A DNA stretch of 61,903 nt, counting the filler, from Bipalium vagum (Eukaryota), in the NCBI GenBank assembly GCA_037834085.1. It is 3 parts of 3 records of this genome, joined end to end, with 100 filler letters (N's around TTAATTAATTAA, not from the genome) between each part and the next. Parts side by side here need not be neighbours in the genome. Positions count along the whole stretch, not along the records: positions 1 to 16,926 come from JBBMKC010085951.1; 2 more parts are not named here. The stretch is one strand, 5' to 3'. The translations under genes were made by a program, and so were the position numbers. The notes under the pieces are model-generated. The model did not search any database. It was not told the origin of the DNA and worked only from the letters and a program-made list of their open reading frames with translations. Position 1 is the stretch's first letter. The number at the start of each line of letters is the position of its first letter. Positions 4,353-45,700 of this stretch are shown piece by piece.

Positions 4353-6216
4353 AGATGATGTCATGTATACAGAAATTTTGCAAAAACAACCTAAACATAG
4401 TGGTAAAATCTTTAAATTTGTCAATTTCTCTTCACGATTTTATTGATTTTTTATATATTTGCATTTTTCATTCAAATCATAAACTCACGTGGTCTTTGTT
4501 CAGCCATTGAATAACAAATTCAAACATGTAAATAAATATTTGTTCAACGCAATAATCTAAACAGATGTCTGGGGGTCAGTCTTGATTTACGTTGTATGTA
4601 CTGATTTAATTTTTCATTATTGATTTTATGTGTAAAAGTTGTTCGGATTGATGACTTCAAAAATATTTATTCTGTAAAGGAACGAGTTTTATTGATTTTT
4701 TTTCTATTATTTTTATTCATTTACCAAATTTTGAAATTTGTTTCAAATATTATTTCCAGATTTTGCGAATATTGGCTTGCTTCTTATTTTATTTTTTAAT
4801 CTTGGATGGCTGAATTAGTTTAAAATTAACTATATGTATTTCATCTGGCTAATCTGATGTGGCTCGTTAAATTATTAATTAATAAGTATCATGTTTACAT
4901 TAATGATTTTTTTATTTTTCTATTTAATAATAATAAAATTTTCCGAGTAATTTGTTTCAAAATTGAATTTTTTTAAAAAAAAATATCAGCTTTCGAATTG
5001 AACCAAATTTAAATAAACTGTTCATGATTGTACAATATTATTAATTATAATTAATAAATGACAACCTGATAAATAGCTAAAATAATCTAAGAAAGGATTA
5101 GTTGTACTTATAATAAATGAAGAATTCCTATATTTTCTGTGATAATTAGAAAATTAGTTTAAAAATTCTTGAATCTTTTCTTTTCGACGTCTACTTCTTT
5201 TATTAATAACCAATATTTATAACTTAGATGGCCGGTCCAATGTTTGATAGTAAATTTTTATCATTTAATCTTACTTCAAAATTAAATTGCATTCGTTTAT
5301 TTTTGCCAAATATATTCCAATTTTGGTATCCTTTACATTATCATTCATGTTTCATATATGGTTCCCATAATATGTTCCCATAATACTTCTATTTTAATGT
5401 CATTTTCTGATGTCCAATGCATCTTCCATATCGTTCTAATATTCTATTATATTGATTTCCGAACTTAGAATTTATTCTTCGCTTCGCCAATTTCACTAAT
5501 GTTTTCATCATTATTTCTTTTCTTTTATAATAGTCATGATATATTTTGTATATATTGTTCTCTCAATATGTTCCAATTAACTGCTATTCAAATTATATCT
5601 TACTCTGATTTCGTTTTTACATAATTTCATCTTTCCATACTACCATATGTTTCCAAAATCTGCTATCGTCTCGTTCTTCATCGGTATATAAATGTTTTAA
5701 ATAAGGATACCTAGTGAATTTTCATGTAAATATTTTTAGTGCGTGGGGTCAAATTTTCATGATTCGATTGTGCTAATCATTCAGGATTTCATAATTCGTT
5801 ATCTGTTCAAAATATATTTTTCAATTGTTATTATCTGTGATTTTGTATGTTTCTATCGGTTTTTTGAATTTCATTATTGATTCTCTTAATTTTCATTATT
5901 ATTTCCAAATTCTTGCTGTTTGGATATATTTTAAAACTTATTTCTTGTGTTCTTCATTTATAAATTTAGTGATATCTCAAGAAAATTCTTGAGATTTATA
6001 CTTCATTTCATCTTCTTGACATTTCATTTGCTTTCTTTTTATCCAAAAGATCTGCCTTTGACATTGATTGTACCTTTTAATTAGTTTTTCATTATAACAA
6101 TTTTGGGCGATTTTGTAGATTTGAACTTTTTATTATTTGAAGTTTGTTTGAATAATATTTTTGCAATTTCTAAAATTAATTTTATTTATTTCCATTTTTC
6201 AATAGAAATTATCATT

Positions 6217-6595
6217 ATGGCTGGTCGACCACGATCACCTGAAAACATTGTCGGAATTGTTCATCCCGCTCTAGATTTGTGTGCTCTAAATATAAATCAC
6301 AGAGATCTGGTTCTTGTCACGTCAGACAATCTATCCACAATAAAATGGTGCGCATCTTACGGCCTTATTGCAAATTCGATGCAGTGTTCCCCTTGTCAAA
6401 TACCAATGTCATTTCAATCTCGAAATGGAGAAAGATTTGTAGACAATTATTGTTGGGCATGCAGAGAATGTAAATCTCATCGAAATATCCGCTTTAATTC
6501 GTTTTTCGAAGGAAGCCACTTACAAATTTGCCAGATAGTGAATGTTATTTATTATTGGTCCATTCAGGTCAAACAATCGGATGCTCAAAAATGGT
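6217..6595 (+). mobile_element. Merlin (IS1016/ISXO2-like) DNA transposase, N-terminal part, truncated
   Basis: ORF 6103-6762 from M at 6217: WCASYGLIANSMQCSPC...YCWACRECKSHRNIRFNSFFEGSHLQICQIVNVIYYWS, the Zn-ribbon/SFF/LIYxW pattern of Merlin transposases; similarity is lost after ~6595 and there is no DDE core. Confidence 0.8.
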
Positions 6596-8209
6596 CAATT
6601 CAATTTTTTCCTTTTTTCTTTGCATTGTCACCGTCTCTCTGTCGTTTTGTTTCTCTTCTTTTATTTTTGGTTCACTATGATTCTGGTTCTCGGTTTATTT
6701 CTTGCTGTGGAGAATCTGGTAGTTGCTTACATACTTTCCAGTTTTCCTCCATCGACCAATGACTAATCGTCCACACAAAAACCCATAGCTATCGGTTATC
6801 CAACTTAACCAGACGTTAGTTGTCTACAGTGAATAATTGATTCTGCAGCAGCTCTTAATACCAAGTCCACAAGCTCTATCTTTGCTTGGCCAATACGCTC
6901 CCCTTTTCCATTACGATAATGACAATCCGACAGCTTTAATTATAATTATTCAGCTCGGCCCAAATGTTTTCGTCCTAGCTGAATAATTAAATAAATTGGG
7001 TTTTCTAATCATGCCTAAAAAATTTTCAATGAAAAATAGATGCTAAATTTTTATATGGAGAAGTGTTAATTATAATTTACCTATTTTTCATTTGTTATAA
7101 TTTTTATTATTATTATCACATTAATATTAAGTTCCTAAAAGTCAAAAAATATATTGAGCTGTTGGTTTTATTATTTAGAAATCTCCAAAATAATGAGTTA
7201 AGTCTACAAAGTGTATTTTGAATAAAAAAAATTTTACAATTAGTATTATCATCCACATAGATTTTTATAAACTTATTTTGGATTTTATTTTTTATTAAAA
7301 ATCCACTCTGTCTTAGACTCAGAGGTTCTCGGCTAGGGAAAAGCAATTTATTTTACCGCCATATGTAACGTGTGAAATAAGAACAATAAAAGAAAAAGAT
7401 GGAAGGAACGAAAATTATAAAATTATTTGATCCTCAAGTCTGGCCTGAGTATTTATTTAATTATAATTAACTTTGTTTTGCCTACAAAAAGTTTATTTTA
7501 AAAATATATGAAAAGATATCAATATGCAATATATGTAGATTTATTAATCGATGGGGATCTTTGTTTTAAATATTAAAGTTTTAAAAAATAAAGTTTCAAT
7601 AAAACTAAGATTTTTCTGTCAGGTTTCTTTTTGTTAATGTATTGCTTTGATTAAGATCTGATCAATTATATGTATCCTGGATATTAATTATATTCGGTTA
7701 CTGTAGGTTGAATTGAATTAAAATCTCAGATACGTTTGACGTGGGTCTTAGCTGGTTTTGTCTCGCAATTTAATGTAACCTCTTTCACTAGTTTTGACTT
7801 GATTAAAATATTTTTATTTTTGAAATGATATTGTTATTTATATATAATCTCTGTATTGATACTGGTCTTTAATAAAGTATAATTATTTTGCTTTTCTCTT
7901 GTTTTTGAAATTCTGAATTTTCTTGTATATTAATTACTCTTATGTCTTCTGTAAATGGTAATCACTGCTTTGTAATTTAATTTCTTTCCTTAGTATTTTT
8001 ATAAATCTTTCGTACTTCTTTTCTTGATTGATTTTAAGAAAAATCTATGATTTTTTTGTTGGCTAAAAATCACTTACAAAAAAGTTAGTCCTGAATTCGT
8101 AGTTCTTGCCAAATTGAAGGGAATAGCCGTCTCTTTATAAAGTCTCAGGGATTGCTCTACGATTACCAATCCTTACGATTAGACGACTATTTTCCCTAAT
8201 AGCCATAAA

Positions 8210-9689: not shown

Positions 9690-10200
9690 TGAAAAATATG
9701 ACCACACATAGTGTACCACTTTTTGACGACGGAACGAGTATGTGTGCCGTGTTCAGTTAACGTAAGAAATAGAACGAAGAAATAGATGAAATCGATGGGT
9801 GTAACAAATTTTAAATTGAGCCTCAACTTGAATGATATAACTGTTTCTCAATCCATAATTGCCGAAGCTTAACAACTTTCTGAAGTGAATTTAGATATTT
9901 CTGGTGCAAGAATTTGGTTTAATTCTTCTATATGACTGGCCAGATGATAAGCCGATGCACCAACACATTGATAATTTTGTTTATCAATTTTGCGATCTGG
10001 ACTGCTCAATGACACAAGATACAGGTAATAGTCTATAATTTCTACAGTAAGAGCCAATACTCCAGGTTTGGACGATATAAAGATTGAGTACGCTTTATAA
10101 CCATTTAATCATAATTGAGCGCATATTTACAATATCCTGATAACTGTTGGATTCAGGAAGTCCTACCCAATTCTCATAATTACTAACTTTTAATAAATTT
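9690..10200 (-). pseudogene. Intronless cyclin-box (Cyclin_N) pseudogene
   Basis: Minus strand: NMRSIMIKWL*SV (ATG 10124) / frameshift / VLALTVEIIDYYL...IDKQNYQCVGASAYHLASHIEE...AIMD*ETVISFKLRLNLKFVTPIDFI. This parallels the cyclin A/B box MRxILxDWL...LAVxxxDRYL...LQLVGxxALxIASKxEE...ExxILxxLxFxLxxPTPxxFL. Confidence 0.75.
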
Positions 10201-10231
10201 TTCAAGACTTCAGTGTTTTTGTTGTAGTGTA

Positions 10232-11784
10232 GGCTGAAGTAGATATTAAAGAAACTGGAAATAATATTGATGATTTAAAACAATTTGATATTTTCTTACA
10301 AGCAAGAATTAGAGTTTATTCTCATAATAATAATAATCAAGCTGATTCTATTTTATACAGAGAAAATGAAAAATTTGAAAAACAAACTTTTATTTATTAT
10401 GATCAAGAAAATCATCATTTTATTTCAATTTCAATAAAGCAGCTTTTTACAATCATTAAAATATTGTAATAAATGTTTAATAAGATTTCAAAATCAGTAT
10501 ACATGTAAAATAGATAATAGTAAATCATATAGTTATAATAAAAAAGAATATTTTAATTTATATCAACATAAGTATGGTTATAAGAATTGCTTAATTTGTC
10601 ATGAACAATACAAATGTCCATTCAATAATCACAAATGTTATTTAAAATATAATTCAGGAACATTTAAACAAAGTAATAAATATATATTTTTTGATTTTGA
10701 AGCAACACAAGAAACAGTTGGTTATCATGAAATAAATTACGGAATTGCTTTTGATAATGAAAGAAATATATTCTATAAAATTCAAAATACTTCAAATACA
10801 TTTTTAAAATTTTTATTACTGAAAATTTATCAATTGAAAATACTTTAGATAATATATAATTTTTAGAAGAAATAATAATTGAAGACTCAATTTCTTTAAT
10901 TGATACTTTTTGTATATTCTTTATTTGTAAAGATTTTGAAAAATATACTTTTATAGCACATTATGAAAAATTATATAACTATCCAATATTAGGTTGGTTA
11001 ATTCAAAATAAACTACCAGTTGAAAAAATTAGCTCAGGAAGAAAATCACATTCATGCAAATAAAACATTTTTATATAAGATTGGTAGATTCGATTTTACT
11101 TTACATTAAAAGCTTTTCCAGAAACATTTGGTTTTAAAGGTTCCAAAGGATATTTCCAACATTATTTCAATACAACAAAATATTAAAATTACATTGGTAA
11201 ATATCCAGATTTAAAATGTTATTTATAGATATATGAGCGATAATAATAAAGAAAAAAGTTTATTAAAACAATGGCATGATGAAAAAATAAAAAAGAATGA
11301 AGTTTTTAGTTTTCAAATACAAATGTTTTATTATTGTTTAACAGATGTTATGATCTTAACTAAAGGTTGTTTAATTTTTAGAGATTTATTTTTAAATATA
11401 AATATATCAGAAACCCAAAAATTAGAACGATGTTTTTTTTAAAAAGCTTTTAAAGAGCCAAAAGAATCATTTTGTAGAGGAAGAACTAAACCTATAAATA
11501 AAAAACAAAAGGTTTTGTAAAAAATAATATTAATTCAGATAAACTAACTTTTGAAAAAATAGGAATTTAGTATTAAATAATCCTAATAATCCGTTTAATA
11601 AAAATAAGGAAGAAAATTATGAAATAGTAGAAGGTATAAAATTTAAATTTACAGGAAATAGTTTTAATAATTTTAATAGGATAAAAAAATAGGTGAAATA
11701 AAAATGTATGATTTTGATTTTAAGAAAAGACAGATCAAATATTTAGACAATGGTAATGTAATAACTTATCCATATGGATATTAA
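10232..11784 (+). pseudogene. Protein-primed DNA polymerase B (FPHxFNT-type lineage), frameshifted, palm deleted
   Basis: N-terminal IDDLKQFDIFLQARIRVY...FIYYDQENHHF; Cys-rich segment; ExoI YIFFDFEATQE (10681); FIAHY; IRLVDS; LKAFPETFGFKGSKGYFQHYFNTTKY*NYIGKYP; ExoIII YCLTDVMILTKGCLIFRDLF; PKESFCRGRT; C-terminus FKKRQ...TYPYGY* (stop 11782-11784). Confidence 0.9.
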
Positions 11785-11875
11785 AATTTTATTCTTTAGA
11801 AAAAAATTGTTAGCTAGAGTTGAAGGTTTTTTTCCCAACAATAATCTTTCGCAATCTCAAAATGAAATTTAAAAA

Positions 11876-12055
11876 ATGATGTTCTTTTCTTTTTGTCGTT
11901 TTTATCATGATAGATTTTTGGATTATGATTCGAAAGGTGTAGCTGAAGAATTTAATTTATCTTATAGAGAGCTGATGAGACAATTAAATTTGAATGAAAT
12001 AATGATGTATACTGAATATTTATATGAGGATGATTTATTTATTGAACATGAATAA
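11876..12055 (+). CDS. Small acidic ORF (59 aa) of the Polinton, unknown function
   Basis: MMFFSFCRFYHDRFLDYDSKGVAEEFNLSYRELMRQLNLNEIMMYTEYLYEDDYFIEHE*, preceded by TTTAAAAAATG like neighbouring genes. Confidence 0.35.
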   Translation: MMFFSFCRFYHDRFLDYDSKGVAEEFNLSYRELMRQLNLNEIMMYTEYLYEDDLFIEHE

Positions 12056-12341
12056 AAGAATTTTAAAAATTAAAATTTTATTTTAAAAAATGAATCGATA
12101 TAAGATTTTAAAAACAAATACATTACTAGAGTTTTTATGTAAATATGGAATAACTCAACTAAAAATTTTGATGTAATTGATATTGCTGAAGAATTAGAAA
12201 TGCTCTTAAAAGTTTTAACGAAAGATGAAGTAACAGAATAAAGAGTTAAGTCAGAAATTCCATTAATTATTAATTATAAAAATACAAATCAAAATCGAAT
12301 TTATTATGTTGAATATTACAAAAATTTTTACCTAACAAAAC

Positions 12342-12462
12342 AATAGATGAAATAAAAATGTATGACTTTGATTTTAATAAAAGACAGATAGAATATTTAA
12401 AAAATGGTAATATAATAACTTATCCATATGGATATTAAAAATTTTATTCTTCAGAAAAAAAT
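12342..12462 (+). repeat. Diverged direct repeat of the pPolB 3' end (copy of ~11688-11807)
   Basis: DEIKMYDFDFNKRQIEYLKNGNIITYPYGY* versus GEIKMYDFDFKKRQIKYLDNGNVITYPYGY*, with shared downstream aaattttattct(t/c)agaaaaaaat. Confidence 0.9.
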
Positions 12463-12701
12463 ACTTATTGTATATCTATACTAAAAGAAAATTAAAAATT
12501 TATAAAAATTAAAAAATTATAAAATTTATAAAAAAGAAAAAAATATCGTAAAATGGCAATAAAAAATGCAGTAAAAAATTTTTGGATGCCTAAATATCCC
12601 CTGATTTAAAATAATTAAATTTTGCTAGTCTTTTAGAATGACCAACAGAATTTATATAGTAATATTTTTGAGGGGATTAAAAATCAAATTTTATTTTAAA
12701 A

Positions 12702-13223
12702 ATGGCGAATACAAATTTCATTACTGAAAATTGTCAATCTGTAAATTTTAAAACATGTTTACAATGTTTTCAAAAGAAACCTATTTCTGCAATTTATTCA
12801 AAAATGAATAAATGTGAAAATTGTCTTAAATTTAATGTAACACAACATAGAAAGATTCCAGAAAATAGAATAAAATATAATGCGTATCATAGAAATAGAA
12901 TACAAGAAAATCCAATGTTAAAACTTCAAGAAAATTTATATACCAGTTTAAATAGATGTTTAAAAAAACAGAGAGAATCTGAACAAATAAAAATGTTAAT
13001 CGGATGTAGTTTTGATTTTTATATGAGTGAATTGATTTTCAATTTTATGATGGAATGATATGGGAAAACAAAGGATGTTTTTGGCGTATTGATCATGTTC
13101 TTTCCGTTTCAAAATTTGATTTTGAATAAAGATCATTTTAAAATATGTCGGAATTGGAAAAATTTAAGACCATTAAGATCTGATAAAAATCTAAGTAAAA
13201 GTATTAAAATTTATTATGAATAA
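12702..13223 (+). pseudogene. HNH endonuclease (giant-virus/NCLDV-like type), frameshifted
   Basis: N-terminal KTCLQC...CENC Zn ribbon and LIGCSFDF; after frameshifts MIWENKGCFWRIDHVLSVSKFD and ICRNWKNLRPLRSDKNLSKS, matching WHIDHxxP...CFNWxNLRPL...NLSK. Confidence 0.8.
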
Positions 13224-13264
13224 AATAAAGCATAAAATAAATTTTTTTTAAAAATACAAGATAA

Positions 13265-14513
13265 TTATAATTCAATCTTTTTTGCTTTACTTTCATAATT
13301 AATCATTTTTCCACCTTCACGTTTAATATCCACAAATTTCTCATGTAATAAAACATAATTTAAAAATCCTTTAAAATCATTTTCTTTTTCAATAAGTAAA
13401 GTAATTTTTGCTCCTTTTATACACAGATTTTCTGCTTGATCTGTTAAATCAAAACAAAATATGGAATATAATTTTTCAAATTCTAATAAAGATAACTATG
13501 GATCATTCTTAACATATTTATATGCTTCTACATAATTCAAATAGGTTTCATCATTGTATGCTTTTTAAAGTTTATTGGTTATAAAGGATAATAAGTATCA
13601 ACAAGTTGAATTTGTAAAGATTTAATTTTTTCTTGAACAAATAAACTATTATTTTTCTTAAACCAAATATTTATTTCTATAAAAGAAATAAATAAACATA
13701 TTGGAATATTAGGTATATTTTATATTTGTAATGTTTAAGTTGTTCCTTCAGTTAATTTTAATTCTCAACAACTTCTACATAGAAAATTAATATTAATATT
13801 TTTATCATCACTCATTCTTTGGATAAGATCTAATCTTACTTTTTTGTTAAATTTTAAAGATGGAATAAATAATGAAAGTTTTTCAATCTTATTTTAGGTT
13901 CATGTTTTTCTACAACTTTTTGTGTTCCATAAAATATTAATTTTTTTACATTAGTTATTCTAATAATGTTATTTCCCCTTGAATATTATATACAACTTTT
14001 CTAAAATATTGTAAAAATTTAAATATTATTTTTTTTGGAAATCTTCCTCTAAATGTATTATGTGAATATAAAATTTTTCTAGATTTAAAACATTTATTGT
14101 TTTTACGTTCATTCTCTTTAATTTTATCAGGAATCCATCCAAATAATTCTCCATTATTATTTTTATCAATCATTACAAAATTTGTTATGGAATTTGGTGG
14201 ACAAAATTTTTGAATATTTTCTATTTCTGTTTATCCTAATTTTAATGAAGCATTTGAAAATAAATAAGGAAAAATGTTATTTTGCAATATTATATTTTTT
14301 TCTGCTTTAACATTTTTTATTTTAATTTCATAAATAAAATATACATTACATATATCTAAAGGATTTGTTTTAGGTGTTATTGTAAATGTTAAATTTCCTG
14401 TGTCATTTAAATTTGTTAATATTTCTGGATCTAAGCTTACTTAATAATAATGTTTTCTCAGATGCTGTTTTTCGATGATAGTAATTTTTATCATTAATCA
14501 ACGTTTCTTCCAT
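13265..14513 (-). pseudogene. Polinton major capsid protein (double jelly-roll type), degenerate
   Basis: ATG 14513: MEETLIND...LNDTGNLTFTI...LQNNIFPYLFSNASLKLG*TEIE...GELFGWIPD...FRGRFPKKIIFKFLQYFRKVVYN; C-terminal YFCFDLTDQAENL...KKIEL*; lies next to the ATPase and minor capsid genes. Confidence 0.8.
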
Positions 14514-14568
14514 TTTTAATAAGAAAAAAAAAATTTTTGGAAAAATAAAAATTAAGAAAAATAAATTT

Positions 14569-15298
14569 TTATTCAAATGCTGATGGCATTATCTGTTTTG
14601 TGTCTAAATTTATATACAAATGATTATGTTTTTGCTTCATATGAAAATCAAATAAATAATCAAATTCTTTTTCTAAAAGCTGAGATTACATTTTTGAATA
14701 AATTTTGGATTTATCATTTATAGAAATTTCAAATAAAATTAAAAGATAGGAATTATTTCTTATATCTCTTAAAGGTAAATTAAAAAAAGATTGTGATAAA
14801 TATATTACTGAACATTTTGTATGTCTTCCTCTTGTAAAATACATTTCTATAATATGTTGATTTTTTTCATTTACAACATCATCAAAAATAATTAAAATTT
14901 TCTCTGGTGGTTGAATTTCATTAGGTTTATCAGATAATGTTACTTTAATTTCTCGGACTTTTTTTCCTTCAGTTTCGCTTTCTTTATATTTGTAGTTTTC
15001 TTCATCAAATTTATATTTTTTTATTTTTGATATGCTGATAGGCTTCTTCTTTTGATAATCCATAATCAAAACAATCTTTAATATATTTTAATGTTGGTTG
15101 AAGAAAAGCAATTATAGAAAAAATAATCAAATTGGTATAATCAATATAATCTATTTTTAATAGCATATTATATAATAACATTGTTTTTCCTGATATAGAA
15201 GGATCAATAATTAACATTCTAAAAATTTGTGGTAAATTGGAATGATGTTTAAATTTTACAGAATTATTATTTAAGAAATCATCACAATCAAATTCCAT
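14569..15298 (-). pseudogene. A32/FtsK-like genome packaging ATPase, frameshifted
   Basis: Degenerate Walker A RMLIIDPSISGKT; Walker B LIIFDD; YFTRGRH; IYLSQSFF; IRNN. Split across ORFs 15011-15298 and 14686-15069 and continuing past a stop to ...PSAFE*. Confidence 0.92.
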
Positions 15299-15325
15299 TT
15301 TTAAAAATATAATTTGACTTACTAT

Positions 15326-16128
15326 TTAAACTTGTTTGAGGTGCATTTAAAAACTAATTTCTTCTTCATTAAAGTCTATTAATTCTCTGTTATCATCCAT
15401 TATTCTAAACGTAATAATAATTATAATACAATTAATAATATCAATATTTTTTGTAATCACAGGAAAATAAATAGGAAAATTTGGTTTTTTATTAATTTTA
15501 TATCCTCTTTTTACAGTATTCGTAGGAAAATCATAAATAATAGTTGTTTTTTATTATTAAAATATAATCCACTTACAATATCACATTCAACCATAAGTGT
15601 ATTTATATCTGAAATATTATCTTTTTGAGGATAATGAACTCCTTCTTCATAAGATTAATTTACTTCAAATCCTAAGAAATTTGCTAATGAATTTTGAACA
15701 GGAAAAAATATTTTACGACTAGATATTTCTATTATTCAATTACCAGAAATTGGATTAGCAACAATCTTAAAATAAAATTTATCTTTTTCTAAAACTACTA
15801 ACTCTTTGTCATATTTAAATTGAAACTCGATTGAATTAGATATTTCTGAAATTTCTTATGCTCTAGGAGTTAGTTTGAAATTTTATTTTTTATTTTTACC
15901 TTTTGAATCTGTAATTTTTAAATTCATTCTATTATTTTTTCAGTATTATTAAAAATTGAATTATACGTTGAAAAATATACTAAACCTAATTCATAGTTTA
16001 AATTGTCTTTAATCTAATCTTTATTTTATTTTTGAACTATTGCTTTTTATGAGAAATGAAGTTGAAAATTTTAGAGATAAAAGGTTTGTTATTTTTTTTA
16101 ACGATTCGGAAGCTATGCTTGGTTTCAT
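15326..16128 (-). pseudogene. Polinton minor capsid (penton) protein, degenerate
   Basis: NYELGLVYFSTYNSIFN; SLANFLGFE; ISDINTLMVECDIVSGLYFN; IIYDFPTNTVKRGYKINKKPNFPIYFPV; ITFRIMDDNRELIDFNEEEISF*MHLKQV*. Start position is approximate. Confidence 0.85.
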
Positions 16129-16264
16129 TTTTTTCATATCTTTATATTTTTCATATCTATGAAAAAACATAATCTCATTAATTTTTATATTTTCTAAATT
16201 AAAATTTTATAGAGAAATTTGTGAATCAATTGAAAATTCAATTAGTAAACTTTATTTATTTCAA

Positions 16265-16477
16265 ATGAAAGCTTTAGAAGATAAAATTTTAACAAATGAA
16301 GAAATCGAACAAGCAAAAATAATTATTAAGGAATGTAAAAAGAATATTAAAAAAATAAAATCAGTAAATGAAATTGCAAAAATAAATAATGAAGCAAAAA
16401 AAGAATTGAAAAAAGAATTGAAAAAAGAGTATAGAGCAGCTGTAAAACAGCTTAGTGTTAAAGTCACAAAACATTAA
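16265..16477 (+). CDS. Small Lys/Glu-rich coiled-coil ORF (70 aa), unknown function
   Basis: Intact ATG ORF with a KKEL-KKEL-KKEY repeat, located inside the Polinton cluster. Confidence 0.4.
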   Translation: MKALEDKILTNEEIEQAKIIIKECKKNIKKIKSVNEIAKINNEAKKELKKELKKEYRAAVKQLSVKVTKH

Positions 16478-16778
16478 AAAATATTAATAAAAAAACTAAT
16501 TAATTTAATTTAATTTTTTTTTAAAAATGAGTGACTTATATAACATAAAAATTTTTCAGTTAAATAAATTTTTATATTTATTAGAGACTTTTCCTGAATT
16601 AAAAAATATAAAAATAAATTCTCTTCAAGATATTTATAATTTTTAGAAATAGAATATTATGACTACCCTTGGTAGTACTCTACAAGTAAAAAAAATTAAT
16701 TATCAAAGGTTGGCTTACAACTTGTAAATTTGTTTTACATTCACCTCAAACAAGTATAAGTAAAAAAAATAGTAAAAA

Positions 16779-16926
16779 ATGGAATTTTATTGTGATGATT
16801 TCTTAAATAATAATTCTGTAAAATTTAATCACTATTCTAAGTTACCCTTAATTTTTCGAATGTTAATAATTGGTCCTTCTGGTTCAGGAAAAACAATGTT
16901 ATTATATAATATGTTATTAAAAAAAA
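16779..16926 (+). CDS. Second packaging ATPase copy (N-terminus, intact Walker A), cut by assembly gap
   Basis: MEFYCDDFLNNNSVKFNHYSKLPLIFRMLIIGPSGSGKTMLLYNMLLK; preceded by a minor-capsid tail (HLKQV*) at ~16743-16760. Confidence 0.88.
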
Positions 16927-16970
16927 NNNNNNNNNNNNNNNNNNNNNNNNNNNNNNNNNNNNNNNNNNNN

Positions 16971-16982
16971 TTAATTAATTAA
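16971..16982. other. Artificial scaffold linker TTAATTAATTAA between N runs
   Basis: Palindromic six-frame stop cassette flanked by N runs of similar length; identical at 34636. Confidence 0.9.
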
Positions 16983-17029
16983 NNNNNNNNNNNNNNNNNN
17001 NNNNNNNNNNNNNNNNNNNNNNNNNNTAA

Positions 17030-20622: not shown

Positions 20623-20715
20623 TTCGTAATTATAAGTCCTCCTTCCTCGAGTTTTCATTTTCACGGGCGTTGGAGCTTCCAGTTCCATAATATATTCTTG
20701 GGCAGATAAATTATT
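20623..20715 (-). CDS. Ankyrin-repeat gene, internal exon
   Basis: ag|NNLSAQEYIMELEAPTPVKMKTRGRRTYNYE|gtaagt, 93 nt, after a 49-nt intron (20716-20764). Confidence 0.75.
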
Positions 20716-20764
20716 CTAACATACACTGTAAATGATGTATTAAAAGTAATAAAAAAATATAAAC

Positions 20765-20982
20765 CACGTCTTTATCACGCAAATTGATGGAGTTGCTGTT
20801 TGATATAATAGATAATATTTGACGTTGATCCTTTAAACAAACAGCATAGTGAACAGGTGTACGTTGTAAGCAGTCTGGCTGGTTAATCAACTGGGGAAAC
20901 TGGTCACAAATTAGGCCCACCAGCTCACTATGACGGTATAGGACGGCCAAATGCAAAATATTTCGATTGCGACTATCGACAC
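20765..20982 (-). CDS. Ankyrin-repeat gene exon
   Basis: ttttag|(G)VDSRNRNILHLAVLYRHSELVGLICDQFPQLINQPDCLQRTPVHYAVCLKDQRQILSII...RDKDV|gt; two ankyrin TPLHxA-type motifs. Confidence 0.85.
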
Positions 20983-23399
20983 CTAAAATAAGTTAGCTAA
21001 TAATGCTGTTGTAAAAGTGCATGGATAATAATTTATTTTTAATATTATATAAATATAATTTTATTTATTATATAGCCAATTGCATTTATTACATTGTTAT
21101 TATTATTATTCAATATAAGTAGAAGAGCTAAGTTTTATTTTAAGGAAAAACAACAGGAGCATCATTCCCATAGGTTCCTTCTTCCATTCTCGTTAAGAAA
21201 TGGTACATGATCTAACCAAATAGGATTTTGATTGAATAAATATGTTAGACTTATTTTCATGCTTTGGACATAACTTTATTGACAAAACTGGTTCGAAATG
21301 AATTTTTAAGATTGATAAAGATGAACAACATACATGACCTTTTATATTTCATGGTCTGTGATAGTATAATAATTAACTATTATTACACATAGATCAGGCA
21401 GAAGAGCTGTTTGGTCAATTGTTGATCAATGTTGAGTTCAAGAAAAGTAAAAGATAAGATTAATAACACTTTTTACTCAATTTTGGAAAAAGAAATGTCA
21501 GCTAAATGTTTAGAGATTCTTCCTCGTACGAGTTAATACTTTCTCCTGTTATAATAGAATTTTTTTTATTAATTTTCCTTCAGTTCAGAATTTTGTTTCA
21601 CTGTTAAAAAATAAACTTAATATTTAATAATTATTATTACCTTTTTACACAAGAAAATAAACATGATTATATGTTATCAGTGATTTGAAATCAATACAAA
21701 ATAACTCCATTCTTTTTACTTATCAAGTCCCTTTGCTAATTTACCCACTTTGGTTACCTTTAAATTAAGAAAAGGTTGGGAAAATATATAATATAATTTA
21801 TCCAGAGTTTGATAAGATTAAAAGTATTCAAAATATAAAATGATTTGCTGATAATAAGTAATAATTTACAATAGGGAAACATTAAAAATAAGTTACTATA
21901 TCCAAATTAATTGTTATTTTTGGTCACTTTAAACAATTGAGATCAATGGAGATTCAGTTCCGAATTACCAGTCGACTGATCCGGAAATGGTATACATATT
22001 ATAATATACATAAAAATATCTTGCTCTACTTAAATAGACGCTCTTCTGTAAATCTGTTGATCGAAATATTTTTGGACAACATAAACTAATTTATTTTGTG
22101 ACCTTTTAATTACATATTATGATTTGACAGATTCAATATGTTTTTAGATCACTAGATCTTTATAATAAAGATAGATGTTATTGATAAACTATGGTCAATT
22201 AGGCTGAAATTGTTATTGTTGATCATCTGGAGAACTTTGGAAAAGTCTAAAAGTTTCCTTTTTAATGGAGCGGCTTTAATCAAATTTTTCAAAAAAAAAG
22301 GTTTTGGTGCATATTACACAACAGAATTAAAAAGTAACACAGACTTTATATAAATTCATAATCAGAATACGGAAATAATCGTATCATTTTGAAGTTTTAT
22401 TACATTCTAAAAATGTTTAAAGTTTTTAAAGGAAGACAAATTGAAGTATAATCGTTTCAAAAAAGAATTTAGTAATAAAAACAGGTTCAGTTTTCCTTGA
22501 ATCTCCGTTTTTATGTTTTACATAATGTAAAGGAAAAATACAAATGACCTTATCATACATAATTTTGCTCTAAAAATATATTTTTTTAAAAAATTGTCAT
22601 ATTATGTTGTTTTGTACGACCAATTATTACTTTTTCTTTAAATTTACTTTAAATATATTCCAAATTACCAATCATTAATGGGTTTTCATAAATAATTTCA
22701 GTTCTGACTACTCTATATTAGACTAAATTCTTCAGTCTGGAAATGTCAAGCTCAATAAACTTGTCCCTAATGAATTTCACAAGAAACAAGTGTCACAAGA
22801 AAATTTCATTCACACCATTTCATTTCATTTATAAATTTCATGGAACCAGTTTTTGATTGAGTCGATATATCGGAATTTAGATTATTTAAATGCTTACCAA
22901 CGGTTTTTAGGAGATTAATGCGGTTTATGGTATTAATGTTTTTTGAAACTAAGGGTAGGAGAAAGAATTTTAGGAAAATCATATTGAGAATAGAATAATT
23001 CTTCTGGACATATTACGTCACCCGAAAAGCAGTCTGTTTTTTGATCAATGTATTAAAGGTTTAAATAAAATTAATCAATAAAATTATTATACATTATTTT
23101 ATTAAATATTAATAAAGTAGTACTTTTTAAAATAATATGATTAATTAAAATAAATGCAAGTAATTTAAAAATGATTAGCCTTAAACCAGATAAAACTAAA
23201 ATTTCAAATGCCAGCTATCCTAAGGTAAACTTCGTAGGGAACCAGCTACTAGATATTACGATTAGTCTTTTGCTCCTGTACTCATGTCAGACGATAGATT
23301 TATGTACAACAGAGCCGCAGCGATTTATCATGGTTTCCTTTGACTTCAATCTGCACAGGCATAGTTCATCTTTCAAGTCTCTACATGATCACTGAAACT

Positions 23400-33505: not shown

Positions 33506-34635
33506 TAATAATAAACTTTGTCAATATTATTTGTCTTGTTTTGTTATAATTAATTTTAACAAATCGGGTTTTTACGGTATGGAGTAAGTAACAAATATAA
33601 ACACTGGTATATTATAATAGCTAAATATTAAAACAAGGGTGAATTTGAATATCATGATTGTCGTGATCTTTACACAGAGTCACGCCACTACAATACTCGA
33701 ATTAGTGAACATTGACAAAAATTAAAACAAATATTTGACCTCACTAAAATTGGGAATAGTCCAAATATTTCCTTATTAACTATATTTTTATTTGTAATTG
33801 TAATTTTTACGTCTATTTAGAAAATATATATTGATTTTTGTGAAAACTATTTTTTCGAACTTAATAATTAATATTGTTTGTCTTGTACATTTACAGGAAA
33901 ATATTGTTTTAAAAAATGATAACTGGTCCTATTTACCTTAATTTTCATTGTTAAAGTTTTGCTATAATGGTGCAGTTAAATTAATTTATACACAGAAATT
34001 GTCATTGTGACCTAATAATAATTCATTTATATAATTAAGAAAGATTTAGATCTTTGTGAACTCAACAGATTCAGATCAATATAACTAATAATTATTAGTG
34101 AAGAGTTTATTCACCACTAACTTTTACTTATAATTTTTAGACTGACAATTTGAAAAAAAATTCGTATCCGCACTTCGAAGAACTTTGAACATCTTTTGTT
34201 TATTAAGAACACTATTCTTTGTGAATAACGCGGAGAATTAATTAATTTCTTTTCCATGAAAATAATAGATAATATTGAAGCTTTAAAATCTAAATGAATT
34301 TGTTTTGATATAAATATCCCCTGTAGAATTGGTTATAATTAGTCAAATTAATCATTTATAATTAAATGTAAGGAGTGGTTCGAACTATTAGTTTGAATTG
34401 ATCTTTTAAATAAGGACCTCACACTTTTGTTAACGATTATTAAATTTTTAAATACAGTTTTTAATGGTTTTTAAATATTTGGTTTCCAAAAGAGTAATTG
34501 CGGTTATAACCAAATACTTTAAGAAGTCATAACTTTTTTAAAAATCAACTTTATTAAACAAAATAATTTCCATCAGAATCAACAATTTTTTNNNNNNNNN
34601 NNNNNNNNNNNNNNNNNNNNNNNNNNNNNNNNNNN

Positions 34636-34647
34636 TTAATTAATTAA
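34636..34647. other. Artificial scaffold linker TTAATTAATTAA
   Basis: Same cassette as at 16971, flanked by N runs. Confidence 0.9.
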
Positions 34648-34692
34648 NNNNNNNNNNNNNNNNNNNNNNNNNNNNNNNNNNNNNNNNNNNNA

Positions 34693-38730: not shown

Positions 38731-39005
38731 CATTGTAAAAATAAGAGTTTTCAAAACCAATTTCGAAAAACTATGACAATCGTACATTTTTCCTAATAAT
38801 TTATCTATGTAATTTATTAATTAATTTAAATAATAAAATTTACAATATTTTTAATATTTAATTTTTCTTTATATTATATATTTATTTAATAAATTCTTTC
38901 TATTTTATATAACATTTCACCTTTTATTAAGTTATTAAATCAATAAAACAATCACTTAAAAACCAAAGAAACACTGTGATATAATGAAGATAAAATATTG
39001 TTAAG

Positions 39006-39232
39006 GCATGGATAACAGCCCTTGGAACTGCATCTAGTGCTGCGACGTTACCAATAACTTTTCGATGCTTAGAGGAGAAGATTGGAATCGACAAAAGGGT
39101 AACCAGATTCGTTTTACCAATTGGTGCTACTATTAATATGGATGGAACTGCTCTTTATGAAGCCGTGGCGTCGATATTTATAGGCCAAATAAATGACAGA
39201 AAGCTGGAACCAATGCAAATATTTACTATAAG
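39006..39232 (+). CDS. SLC1A2: Excitatory amino acid transporter (SLC1A/EAAT2-like), exon encoding HP1-TM7
   Basis: ttaag|[63 protein letters not shown]...IFTI(S)|gtgatt; NMDGT motif; [11 protein letters not shown] is EAAT2-like; ends in phase 2. Confidence 0.95.
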
Positions 39233-39779
39233 GTGATTAATCATATTTTAAAATTGGTAAATTTAAATAATATAAATAAAATAAATATTTTTATAAATTT
39301 CAAAATTGGCGTATTTAATAATAAGTCATTATCGTTTTACTTAATTTTCATGGACGTTATTCGTTAAAACTGAATAAATATTGCTTGTCAAAACATAATA
39401 GGTAATTTTTTTCAATTTGAAAGTTTAATAGTTTTATGCTTAAGTTCAAATTATAATACAAAAGAAAATCAAAATTTGCATTTCCGTTATATTTTGTTAG
39501 ATTACTTTAAAGAGTAAGTATTATTATTATTTATTAATATTTTATTACCTTTGAAAAGGTAAGAGTCGAAAAGACAAGAAATATATAACGTAGAATTTGT
39601 ACATTATTATAAATTGAGTACCAAAAGTATTTGAATAAATATTTTCAATAAATGTCAGGCTGTGTAGCCCACAGAATGTTCATCAAATTCAATATCTGCA
39701 TCCCGGGAAGAATGTATATCATACTATTAGGTCAATGAATAAATTTTTCTTTTTTTCAAAACACTCTTCATTTTTTTTA

Positions 39780-44717: not shown

Positions 44718-45700
44718 TTAGGTTGTTCGGAAAGTTACTACGTTTTTTTTTGAGTTGAAGTTTTAGACATCATTTAAAATATCAAAACAAGTTATAAAAA
44801 TGTCAATATCGATTACATTTAATCCTTATGTCAAATATGATTAGTAGGTAAAATTGTTTAAATATATGAGATAAATTATTTTGTTTGCAAATTTGAAATG
44901 AAATTTGAAAAGTTACATTTTCGATATATTTTACTGTTTTATTTCCGAAAAGGAAGTAGTGCCGCAAATGCATGAAGAAAATTATGTGCGGTATATGAAC
45001 AGGCTAAAACCAAGCGGCAATCTCAAACGTGGTTCTCCAGATTTCGTTCGGGAAATCTCGACATCCAAGATTGGTCGCGTTGTGGAAGATCAGTCAAGAC
45101 TTATGTGGAAAATCTGAGAACTGCCGTTAAAGGAGGCTCGCATTTGATAACTCGGACAATTGGAAAGATGTATGATGGAACTGGCAAGGAGTAATTTTCT
45201 TTGAGCTGCTACCGCGCAACAGGACCATTAATTCCAACATTTACTGCAGTCAACTGGATAAATTAAATTATTGTATCAAGCTGGAGAGGCCATCATTGAC
45301 CAACAGAAAAGGAATAGTTTATCAGCATGACAACGCCAAACCTCATACAAGTTTGGTTATTCGACAGAAGCTGTTAGATCTTGAATATGATGTTCTATCA
45401 CATCTATTATATTCACCCGATCTAGCAACTTCTGATTTCCATTTATTTTGCTCCATGAAACATTCTTTGGGTGGAAAAATCTTCGAATCAGGTGAAGGTG
45501 TCCAAACGTACTTGGTTTCAGTTCTTCGCAAATAAAGAAAGGAGGTTTTATGTGGATGGAATTCTAAAATTACTAGACAGATGTCAGAAAGTGTTTGATC
45601 AAAATGGACAATATACTGTTAACTGAAAAGTTTTTTATTAATACAAAATTTAATCTTGAATCTCATTGAGGAAAGGGAAATATTTTTCCGAAAAAACTAT
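44718..45700 (+). mobile_element. Internally deleted mariner with TTAGGT-type TIRs
   Basis: ta|ttaggttgttcggaaag at 44718 and tttccgaaaaaacta at the right end; HFRYILLFYFRKG, WFSRFRSG, YQHDNAKPH, YSPDLATSDFHLF. Confidence 0.88.

Follow-up and report, generated by a model that had tools for sequence, protein, structure and literature searches.

A stretch of 61,903 nucleotides from the flatworm Bipalium vagum (assembly GCA_037834085.1; hereafter the window) holds, at 10227-16926, an AT-rich, decayed relic of a Polinton/adintovirus. Its DNA polymerase (pPolB) and an HNH-type gene lie on the plus strand and face a minor capsid protein (penton), an A32 packaging ATPase and a major capsid protein (hexon) on the minus strand. 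Sequence comparison indicates that the polymerase and the virion module come from two different adintovirus classes, Beta and Alpha respectively, and that this mismatch is real. Most probably the locus is the germline copy of an 'AB'-type adintovirus, now dead and rearranged; in this type a Beta pPolB accompanies an Alpha virion module, a combination that is uncommon but already described. A preliminary description of this DNA had identified an endogenous Polinton/adintovirus with five named genes, and this holds: pPolB, hexon, penton and ATPase were all matched, and all five genes are present at about the positions and in the orientations then given. The features are collected in Table 1.

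The exonuclease region of the polymerase is of the KGYFPHxFNT / YCxxDV type and not of the KGVxPYEY type when compared by eye with PolBa and PolBb sequences. In the available part of the PMC11071296 supplement, likewise read by eye, PolBb sequences show KGYFPH..YCxxDV, as the window does, and PolBa sequences show KG[VI][FY]PY. These labels are imperfect, since the isolate Adinto6483 is labelled PolBb there and yet carries the Alpha motif. A scan of GTDB with the motif KG[YF]FPHxFN returned 38 loci, many of which lie on Polinton contigs placed in bacterial metagenome-assembled genomes (MAGs); in 27 the motif is part of an open reading frame (ORF) of at least 90 aa. Window positions 10456-11436 are matched by 22 of these 27 ORFs (tblastn, E<=0.01; best 1.5e-20), and PF03175 is present in all four motif-bearing GTDB polymerases tested. 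A profile of 1269 columns, built from 18 such ORFs and thus from references chosen by the motif in question, aligns 10227-11401 with columns 242-649 in pieces of 16-59 bits (best 59, 44 and 40), against a maximum of 3.2 bits in 30 shuffles. The leftmost piece, 10227-10443, covers columns 242-310 at 16.4 bits and was assigned to the vOTU domain by eye; the TP-vOTU-Exo-palm scheme and its domain names follow the portion of PMC11071308 at hand. An atlas cluster in which 13% of members carry PF03175 scored 0.97 for the window pPolB. Because the references were selected by motif, these matches demonstrate homology beyond the motif and do not amount to a two-class test. The assignment to the Beta class (group 1) is therefore one by motif comparison, without a head-to-head score against Alpha polymerases; the earlier reading of a KGYFPHxFNT-type pPolB agrees with both the motif and the tblastn matches.

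For the hexon, the reading frame with stops written as X was searched with phmmer against 1.84 billion proteins and gave 68 matches at E<=1e-3. The best of these, P0001 (413 aa, E 6.6e-53), aligns with 14458 to 13277 of the window across three reading frames, and the start of the gene falls at 14513. The family PF21738 was found in 23 of the 26 hexon homologues scanned and in neither of two Beta hexons; in the window hexon itself it stays below the Pfam cut-off. The predicted model of P0001 (pLDDT 86) matches double-jelly-roll (DJR) capsid proteins in the PDB and BFVD at identities of at most 14%, among them PBCV-1 Vp54 (E 8e-16), and BFVD holds no close relative.

The hexon tree was drawn from 26 full-length sequences of the 68 matches together with P0002, the hexons of four loci and, entered separately, the three pieces of the window gene. 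A quick tree used all 34 rows and the final one 32, the long branches P0048 and P0058 being left out; the root was formed by the Beta hexons, of which only three were included. The window pieces group with P0001 and P0002 (support 98/99) inside a clade of 25 rows (92/86), whose sister group is the Mayetiola-like hexons; the Beta hexons stand apart (100/99). In approximately unbiased (AU) tests, a tree constrained to place the window hexon with the Beta hexons was rejected (p-AU 6e-5), as was one that joined it to the Mayetiola-like hexons (p-AU 9e-6), which disposes of a simple Mayetiola-type hexon. The window hexon is thus placed in the Alpha class, in a subclade apart from the Mayetiola type. 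The tree and the structure comparison that the preliminary description had proposed accordingly gave a non-Beta placement and a DJR fold, and its view that the hexon is not KSELDLF-like and belongs to the class that usually accompanies the other polymerase is borne out by the PF21738-positive relatives and the AU tests.

The remaining virion genes point the same way. The penton of L021 (VBOA01000002.1), a Polinton contig in a bacterial MAG, matches 15995-15332, with two main pieces at E 3e-7, and the penton profile reaches 17 and 14 bits where shuffled sequence gives at most 5.2, which identifies 15330..16075 as a predicted single-jelly-roll penton of the Polinton type. None of three Beta pentons matches the window at E<=1. 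The ATPase profile scores 42 and 25 bits (shuffle maximum 9.7), and its closest match is the Alpha-type ATPase of L021 (E 5e-8), three Beta-type ATPases reaching only E>=0.016; Pox_A32 on 14572-15298 is below cut-off (E 1.2e-3). By these similarities, penton and ATPase are both assigned to the Alpha class. A Beta/Beta element is rejected by the hexon test above and by the lack of any Beta hexon or penton match in the window.

Table 1. Features of the element and its left border (positions along the window).
Feature	Position	Strand	Basis
Decayed intronless cyclin-box sequence, head to head with truncated pPolB	9780..10225	-	Cyclin_N E 1.2e-5; cyclin D1 E 5e-5
pPolB, assigned to Beta class: vOTU end, Cys-rich region, Exo I-III; 5'-truncated, stops, frameshifts	10227..11401	+	profile, tblastn
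pPolB remnant left by two internal deletions, with GGRT-like motif ~11476, KxKG thumb motif ~11502 and tail copy 1	11402..11784	+	codon spacing, profile
pPolB C-terminal tail copy 2, unrelated sequence upstream	12340..12438	+	direct repeat D7
Putative HNH-type endonuclease gene, broken	12702..13223	+	phage HNH match, PHROG
Major capsid protein (hexon), assigned to Alpha class, non-Mayetiola subclade, broken	13265..14513	-	phmmer, PF21738, tree, fold
A32/FtsK packaging ATPase (PacK), broken, degenerate P-loop	14572..15298	-	Pox_A32, profile
Minor capsid protein (penton), assigned to Alpha class, broken, 5' end approximate	15330..16075	-	L021 penton match
Short lysine/glutamate-rich ORF of unknown function	16264..16477	+	ORF list; no family above cut-off
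Second ATPase 5' end, intact P-loop, cut by gap at 16927	16779..16926	+	Pox_A32, inverted repeat

This copy can now neither replicate nor form virions: it is inert because the polymerase palm is gone and every gene is broken by stops and frameshifts. A complete or active element is therefore rejected. About 240 profile columns are missing from the N-terminus of the polymerase. Exo III and the GGRT-like motif are 48 codons apart, against 193-263 in nine of ten references and 91 in the tenth, which amounts to a loss of about 150 codons after Exo III. No SLYP, NSxWG or DTDS motif of the catalytic palm and no PolA/B/C motif occurs anywhere in the element, and beyond the deletions a weak thumb piece (6.7 bits) and the tail (12.8 bits) persist.

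Two internal duplications accompany this decay. The polymerase tails form repeat D7 (83% over 141 nt), whose upstream flanks do not align; the last 30 pPolB codons occur twice, with 7 differences in 90 nt. The two ATPase starts lie on opposite strands as an inverted repeat, alike at 86% over 162 nt, and a comparison of 145 nt shows 16 differences; the second start gives Pox_A32 above cut-off (E 1.8e-5). A common stretch of about 30 nt (inverted repeat I15) precedes both starts, and the likeness of the two suggests that a sister copy continues into the gap. Between the duplicated tails lie two short reading frames, at 11873-12343 (+), with no Pfam match.

The left end of the element is truncated, and its right end is cut off by the N gap at 16927, one of eight N runs in the window. 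Profiles of five rve integrases and four adenain/Ulp1 proteases, and a PLA2X profile, found no match in the window, where the element is incomplete; no terminal inverted repeat (TIR) pair is present among the longest inverted repeats of the window, the ends being lost or in the gap. These results agree with the earlier remark that neither protease nor TIRs are visible. The 'full virion module' of the same description was an overstatement, since no protease was found and every gene is broken, and its gene picture, right as to the five genes, had overlooked the palm loss, both duplications and the adjoining decayed cyclin.

How unusual the pairing appears depends on the source consulted. PMC8502044, which defines the two classes, equates Alpha with group 2 and Beta with group 1; the only mixed pairing in its accessible sections is an Alpha PolB with Beta virion genes, so that a Beta PolB with an Alpha virion module would look new from that paper alone. 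In the available material of PMC11071296 both pairings occur, with 2 AB and 12 BA among 67 adintovirus rows of the naming key as counted by eye. AB there denotes an Alpha hexon with a Beta PolB, motif-checked in Adinto13035 and Adinto15303, and BA the reverse, motif-checked in Adinto12738 and Adinto13673. The idea that a Beta polymerase with an Alpha capsid is undescribed is rejected by these AB isolates, and with it falls the surprise that the preliminary description had attached to the pairing, which is seen in L021 as well. Of the fetched GTDB loci, four have a hexon of adintovirus type: one of these, L021, is AB, and the other three (L005, L013 and L023) are BB.

Of the AB isolates in those parts of PMC11071296, sediment15303 (BK066759) and androctonus13035 (BK066392) share with the window a Beta PolB with KGYFPH and an Alpha hexon; unlike the window, both are intact. 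By eye, 15303 also has the NNFFP motif of the hexon, the long insert in PacK and the Alpha type of penton in common with it, but has an integrase and adenain and a different gene order (PolB, PacK, PLA2-integrase, penton, hexon), with no HNH annotated in the portion seen; the hexon of 13035 is Mayetiola-like, unlike that of the window. L021 likewise combines a KGYFPH pPolB with Alpha ATPase, penton and hexon, yet carries an integrase, PLA2X and a protease-like ORF, has its core genes on one strand and bears a Mayetiola-like hexon. Among elements of a single class, the Alpha adintoviruses (Mayetiola type, Polinton group 2 / Mavpol2) share the PF21738 hexon, the penton and the ATPase class with the window; their polymerase class differs, grouping with their hexons is rejected, and PLA2X was not found in the window. 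The Beta adintoviruses (Terrapene type, vertebrate Mavericks, group 1) share the polymerase class; their hexon differs and their pentons find no match. Nemertoderma6405 (BK066529, from an acoel worm, AA in the same source) has a hexon that by eye is near P0020, a member of the clade of 25 rows that holds the window hexon; it carries PolBa and falls outside the immediate branch of the window with P0001 and P0002. Since a hexon of this kind goes with PolBa, the hexon subclade of the window appears with both polymerases.

Exchange of replication modules is a familiar theme elsewhere. Available sections of PMC10748475 report pPolB replacement in nematode Polintons, under a different group numbering; those of 10.64898/2026.10.13.758929 treat replication-module exchange as common and part of a general mosaicism, and those of 10.64898/2026.06.19.733378 find it common, especially in group 2. 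The accessible part of PMC11131425 adds nothing on polymerase/capsid pairing, and the literature that surfaced on flatworm Polintons consists of general papers. PMC11071296, as far as it was available, lists unsubmitted Schmidtea and Macrostomum adintovirus records, and its supplements may hold closer relatives of the window element. The flatworm records that it names include AAWT01048431 and LFJF01006280.

That the two modules belonged to one element is favored by the uniform GC content of 10230-16926 (19-23%, against 31% in both flanks) and by the compact, convergent junction at which about 40 nt separate the stop codons of the HNH gene and the hexon and nothing resembling a host spacer intervenes. 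Linkage of pPolB and capsid is therefore likely, albeit in a rearranged locus. Several points weigh against this reading. No intact copy was seen, and the presence of two tails and two ATPase starts means that the locus drew on two or more related copies or underwent rearrangement. The class of the polymerase rests on motif comparison and not on a two-class score, with reference polymerases picked by the tested motif itself. Finally, the pPolB tree that the preliminary description had called for was built from the exonuclease pieces and gave no supported placement, the three window pieces failing to cluster.

The same duplications sustain the main alternative, in which a Beta pPolB fragment with the HNH gene and an Alpha virion module from two Polinton families were nested or fused by deletion at this site only. 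Polinton copies can nest, the sequence at 11785-12340 is unassigned, no TIRs were found and the left truncation is sharp; since the duplications imply rearrangement or input from a sister copy, this alternative keeps some weight. It is nonetheless unlikely, for composition is uniform and decay similar over the whole stretch, the HNH-hexon junction is tight, intact AB elements exist elsewhere, and the 62 kb hold no trace of a Beta hexon or Beta penton, the only missing partners that could be searched for. Short-read misassembly that merged several similar copies of a repeat at the end of one contig could account for an element that ends at an N gap in a window with eight N runs, and for duplicates that are mis-joined paralogues. 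The duplicates differ by 8-17%, however, a distance at which assemblers normally keep sequences apart, and the main gene run is collinear with full-length homologues, which makes this the most improbable of the alternatives. Nearly as improbable is an element that extends left of 10227 and carries the cyclin as viral cargo, in the manner of an 'oncoid' gene located upstream of PolB. The cyclin sequence has no introns, is decayed and adjoins the polymerase remnant, and candidate oncogene-like genes are typically placed upstream of PolB in the accessible sections of PMC8502044. The flank has 31% GC, however, against 20% inside the element, and the join falls inside pPolB, with some 240 columns missing, so that it marks a deletion or insertion junction and not a native gene border. 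The cyclin-box sequence is probably flank, not part of the element, and a processed pseudogene is a better account of it than cargo.

Under the favored reading of a dead AB-type copy, and going by what is known of the family, the parent would have been an integrating double-stranded DNA virus with protein-primed replication that packaged its DNA by the A32 ATPase into DJR capsids. It would have entered the genome through an rve integrase, whose gene is now either missing or hidden in the gap. At an earlier time, an exchange of replication modules between polintoviruses would have produced the mixed pairing, and deletions and recombination with a close sister copy would have followed insertion. 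More tentatively, with the balance somewhat against it, the copy may represent an undescribed invertebrate, possibly flatworm, lineage whose hexon subclade, separate from the type members of either reference class, underwent a switch from an Alpha to a Beta polymerase within itself and which has its own penton-ATPase-hexon order, the HNH gene linked to the polymerase being a possible driver of the swap. The locus adds one example to the less common of the two directions in which animal polintoviruses exchange modules, as judged from the AB and BA counts above, and points to a large, mostly unnamed Alpha-hexon subclade, seemingly with both polymerase classes. It is useful for adintovirus classification and changes no principle, and the copy is too decayed for its function to be tested.

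The HNH gene is a putative assignment from a single 32-aa piece, which matches a phage 'putative HNH endonuclease' (E 2e-4); the HNH piece reaches 61% over 33 aa (E 4e-6), and a PHROG endonuclease matches the region at E 0.025. The region has no Pfam match and its C-terminal piece no significant match. Other searches came back empty: the PDB sequence search with a hexon piece and the phage tblastn with P0001 and with a pPolB piece gave no match, none of the 28 stretches picked up by a GTDB scan for relatives of the hexon was confirmed, and NCBIfam and PHROGs found nothing diagnostic in the window. Word-based protein searches gave no match for a hexon piece (655 candidates), the pPolB frame (1303) or an Exo III piece (10), and these blanks are uninformative because the HMMER search recovered 68 hexon relatives.

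Eukaryotic Polinton contigs occur in several GTDB species-representative MAGs, namely L005, L013, L030, L036 and L037 (Endozoicomonas), L006, L008, L024, L027 and L028 (Dysgonomonas), L016, L025, L021 and L023, and are probably host contamination. At L017:306-1823 (-) and L020:12376-13341 (+), a KGYFPH-type pPolB stands beside ORFs that by eye resemble capsids of other types and that neither hexon profile matched, which suggests further module mixing.

In the rest of the window, host exons of an SLC1A/SDF transporter (E 1e-28) and an ankyrin-repeat gene lie at 38994-39233 and 57183-57557 (+) and at 20714-20992 (-). Remnants of a mariner/Tc1 transposase occur at 45176-45535 (+; PF01359, E 2e-10) and, by eye, at other sites (e.g. 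44976, 48055 and 60104). These exons and the mariner remnant fit an AT-rich animal genome. The gaps at 16927-17026 and 34592-34691 are built alike, as N44-TTAATTAATTAA-N44, a pattern more suggestive of an assembly linker than of biology. Finally, a 225-aa ORF at 6085-6762 (+), without a Pfam or NCBIfam match, contains a Cys-rich region that we take to resemble the N-terminus of a Merlin/IS1016 transposase.

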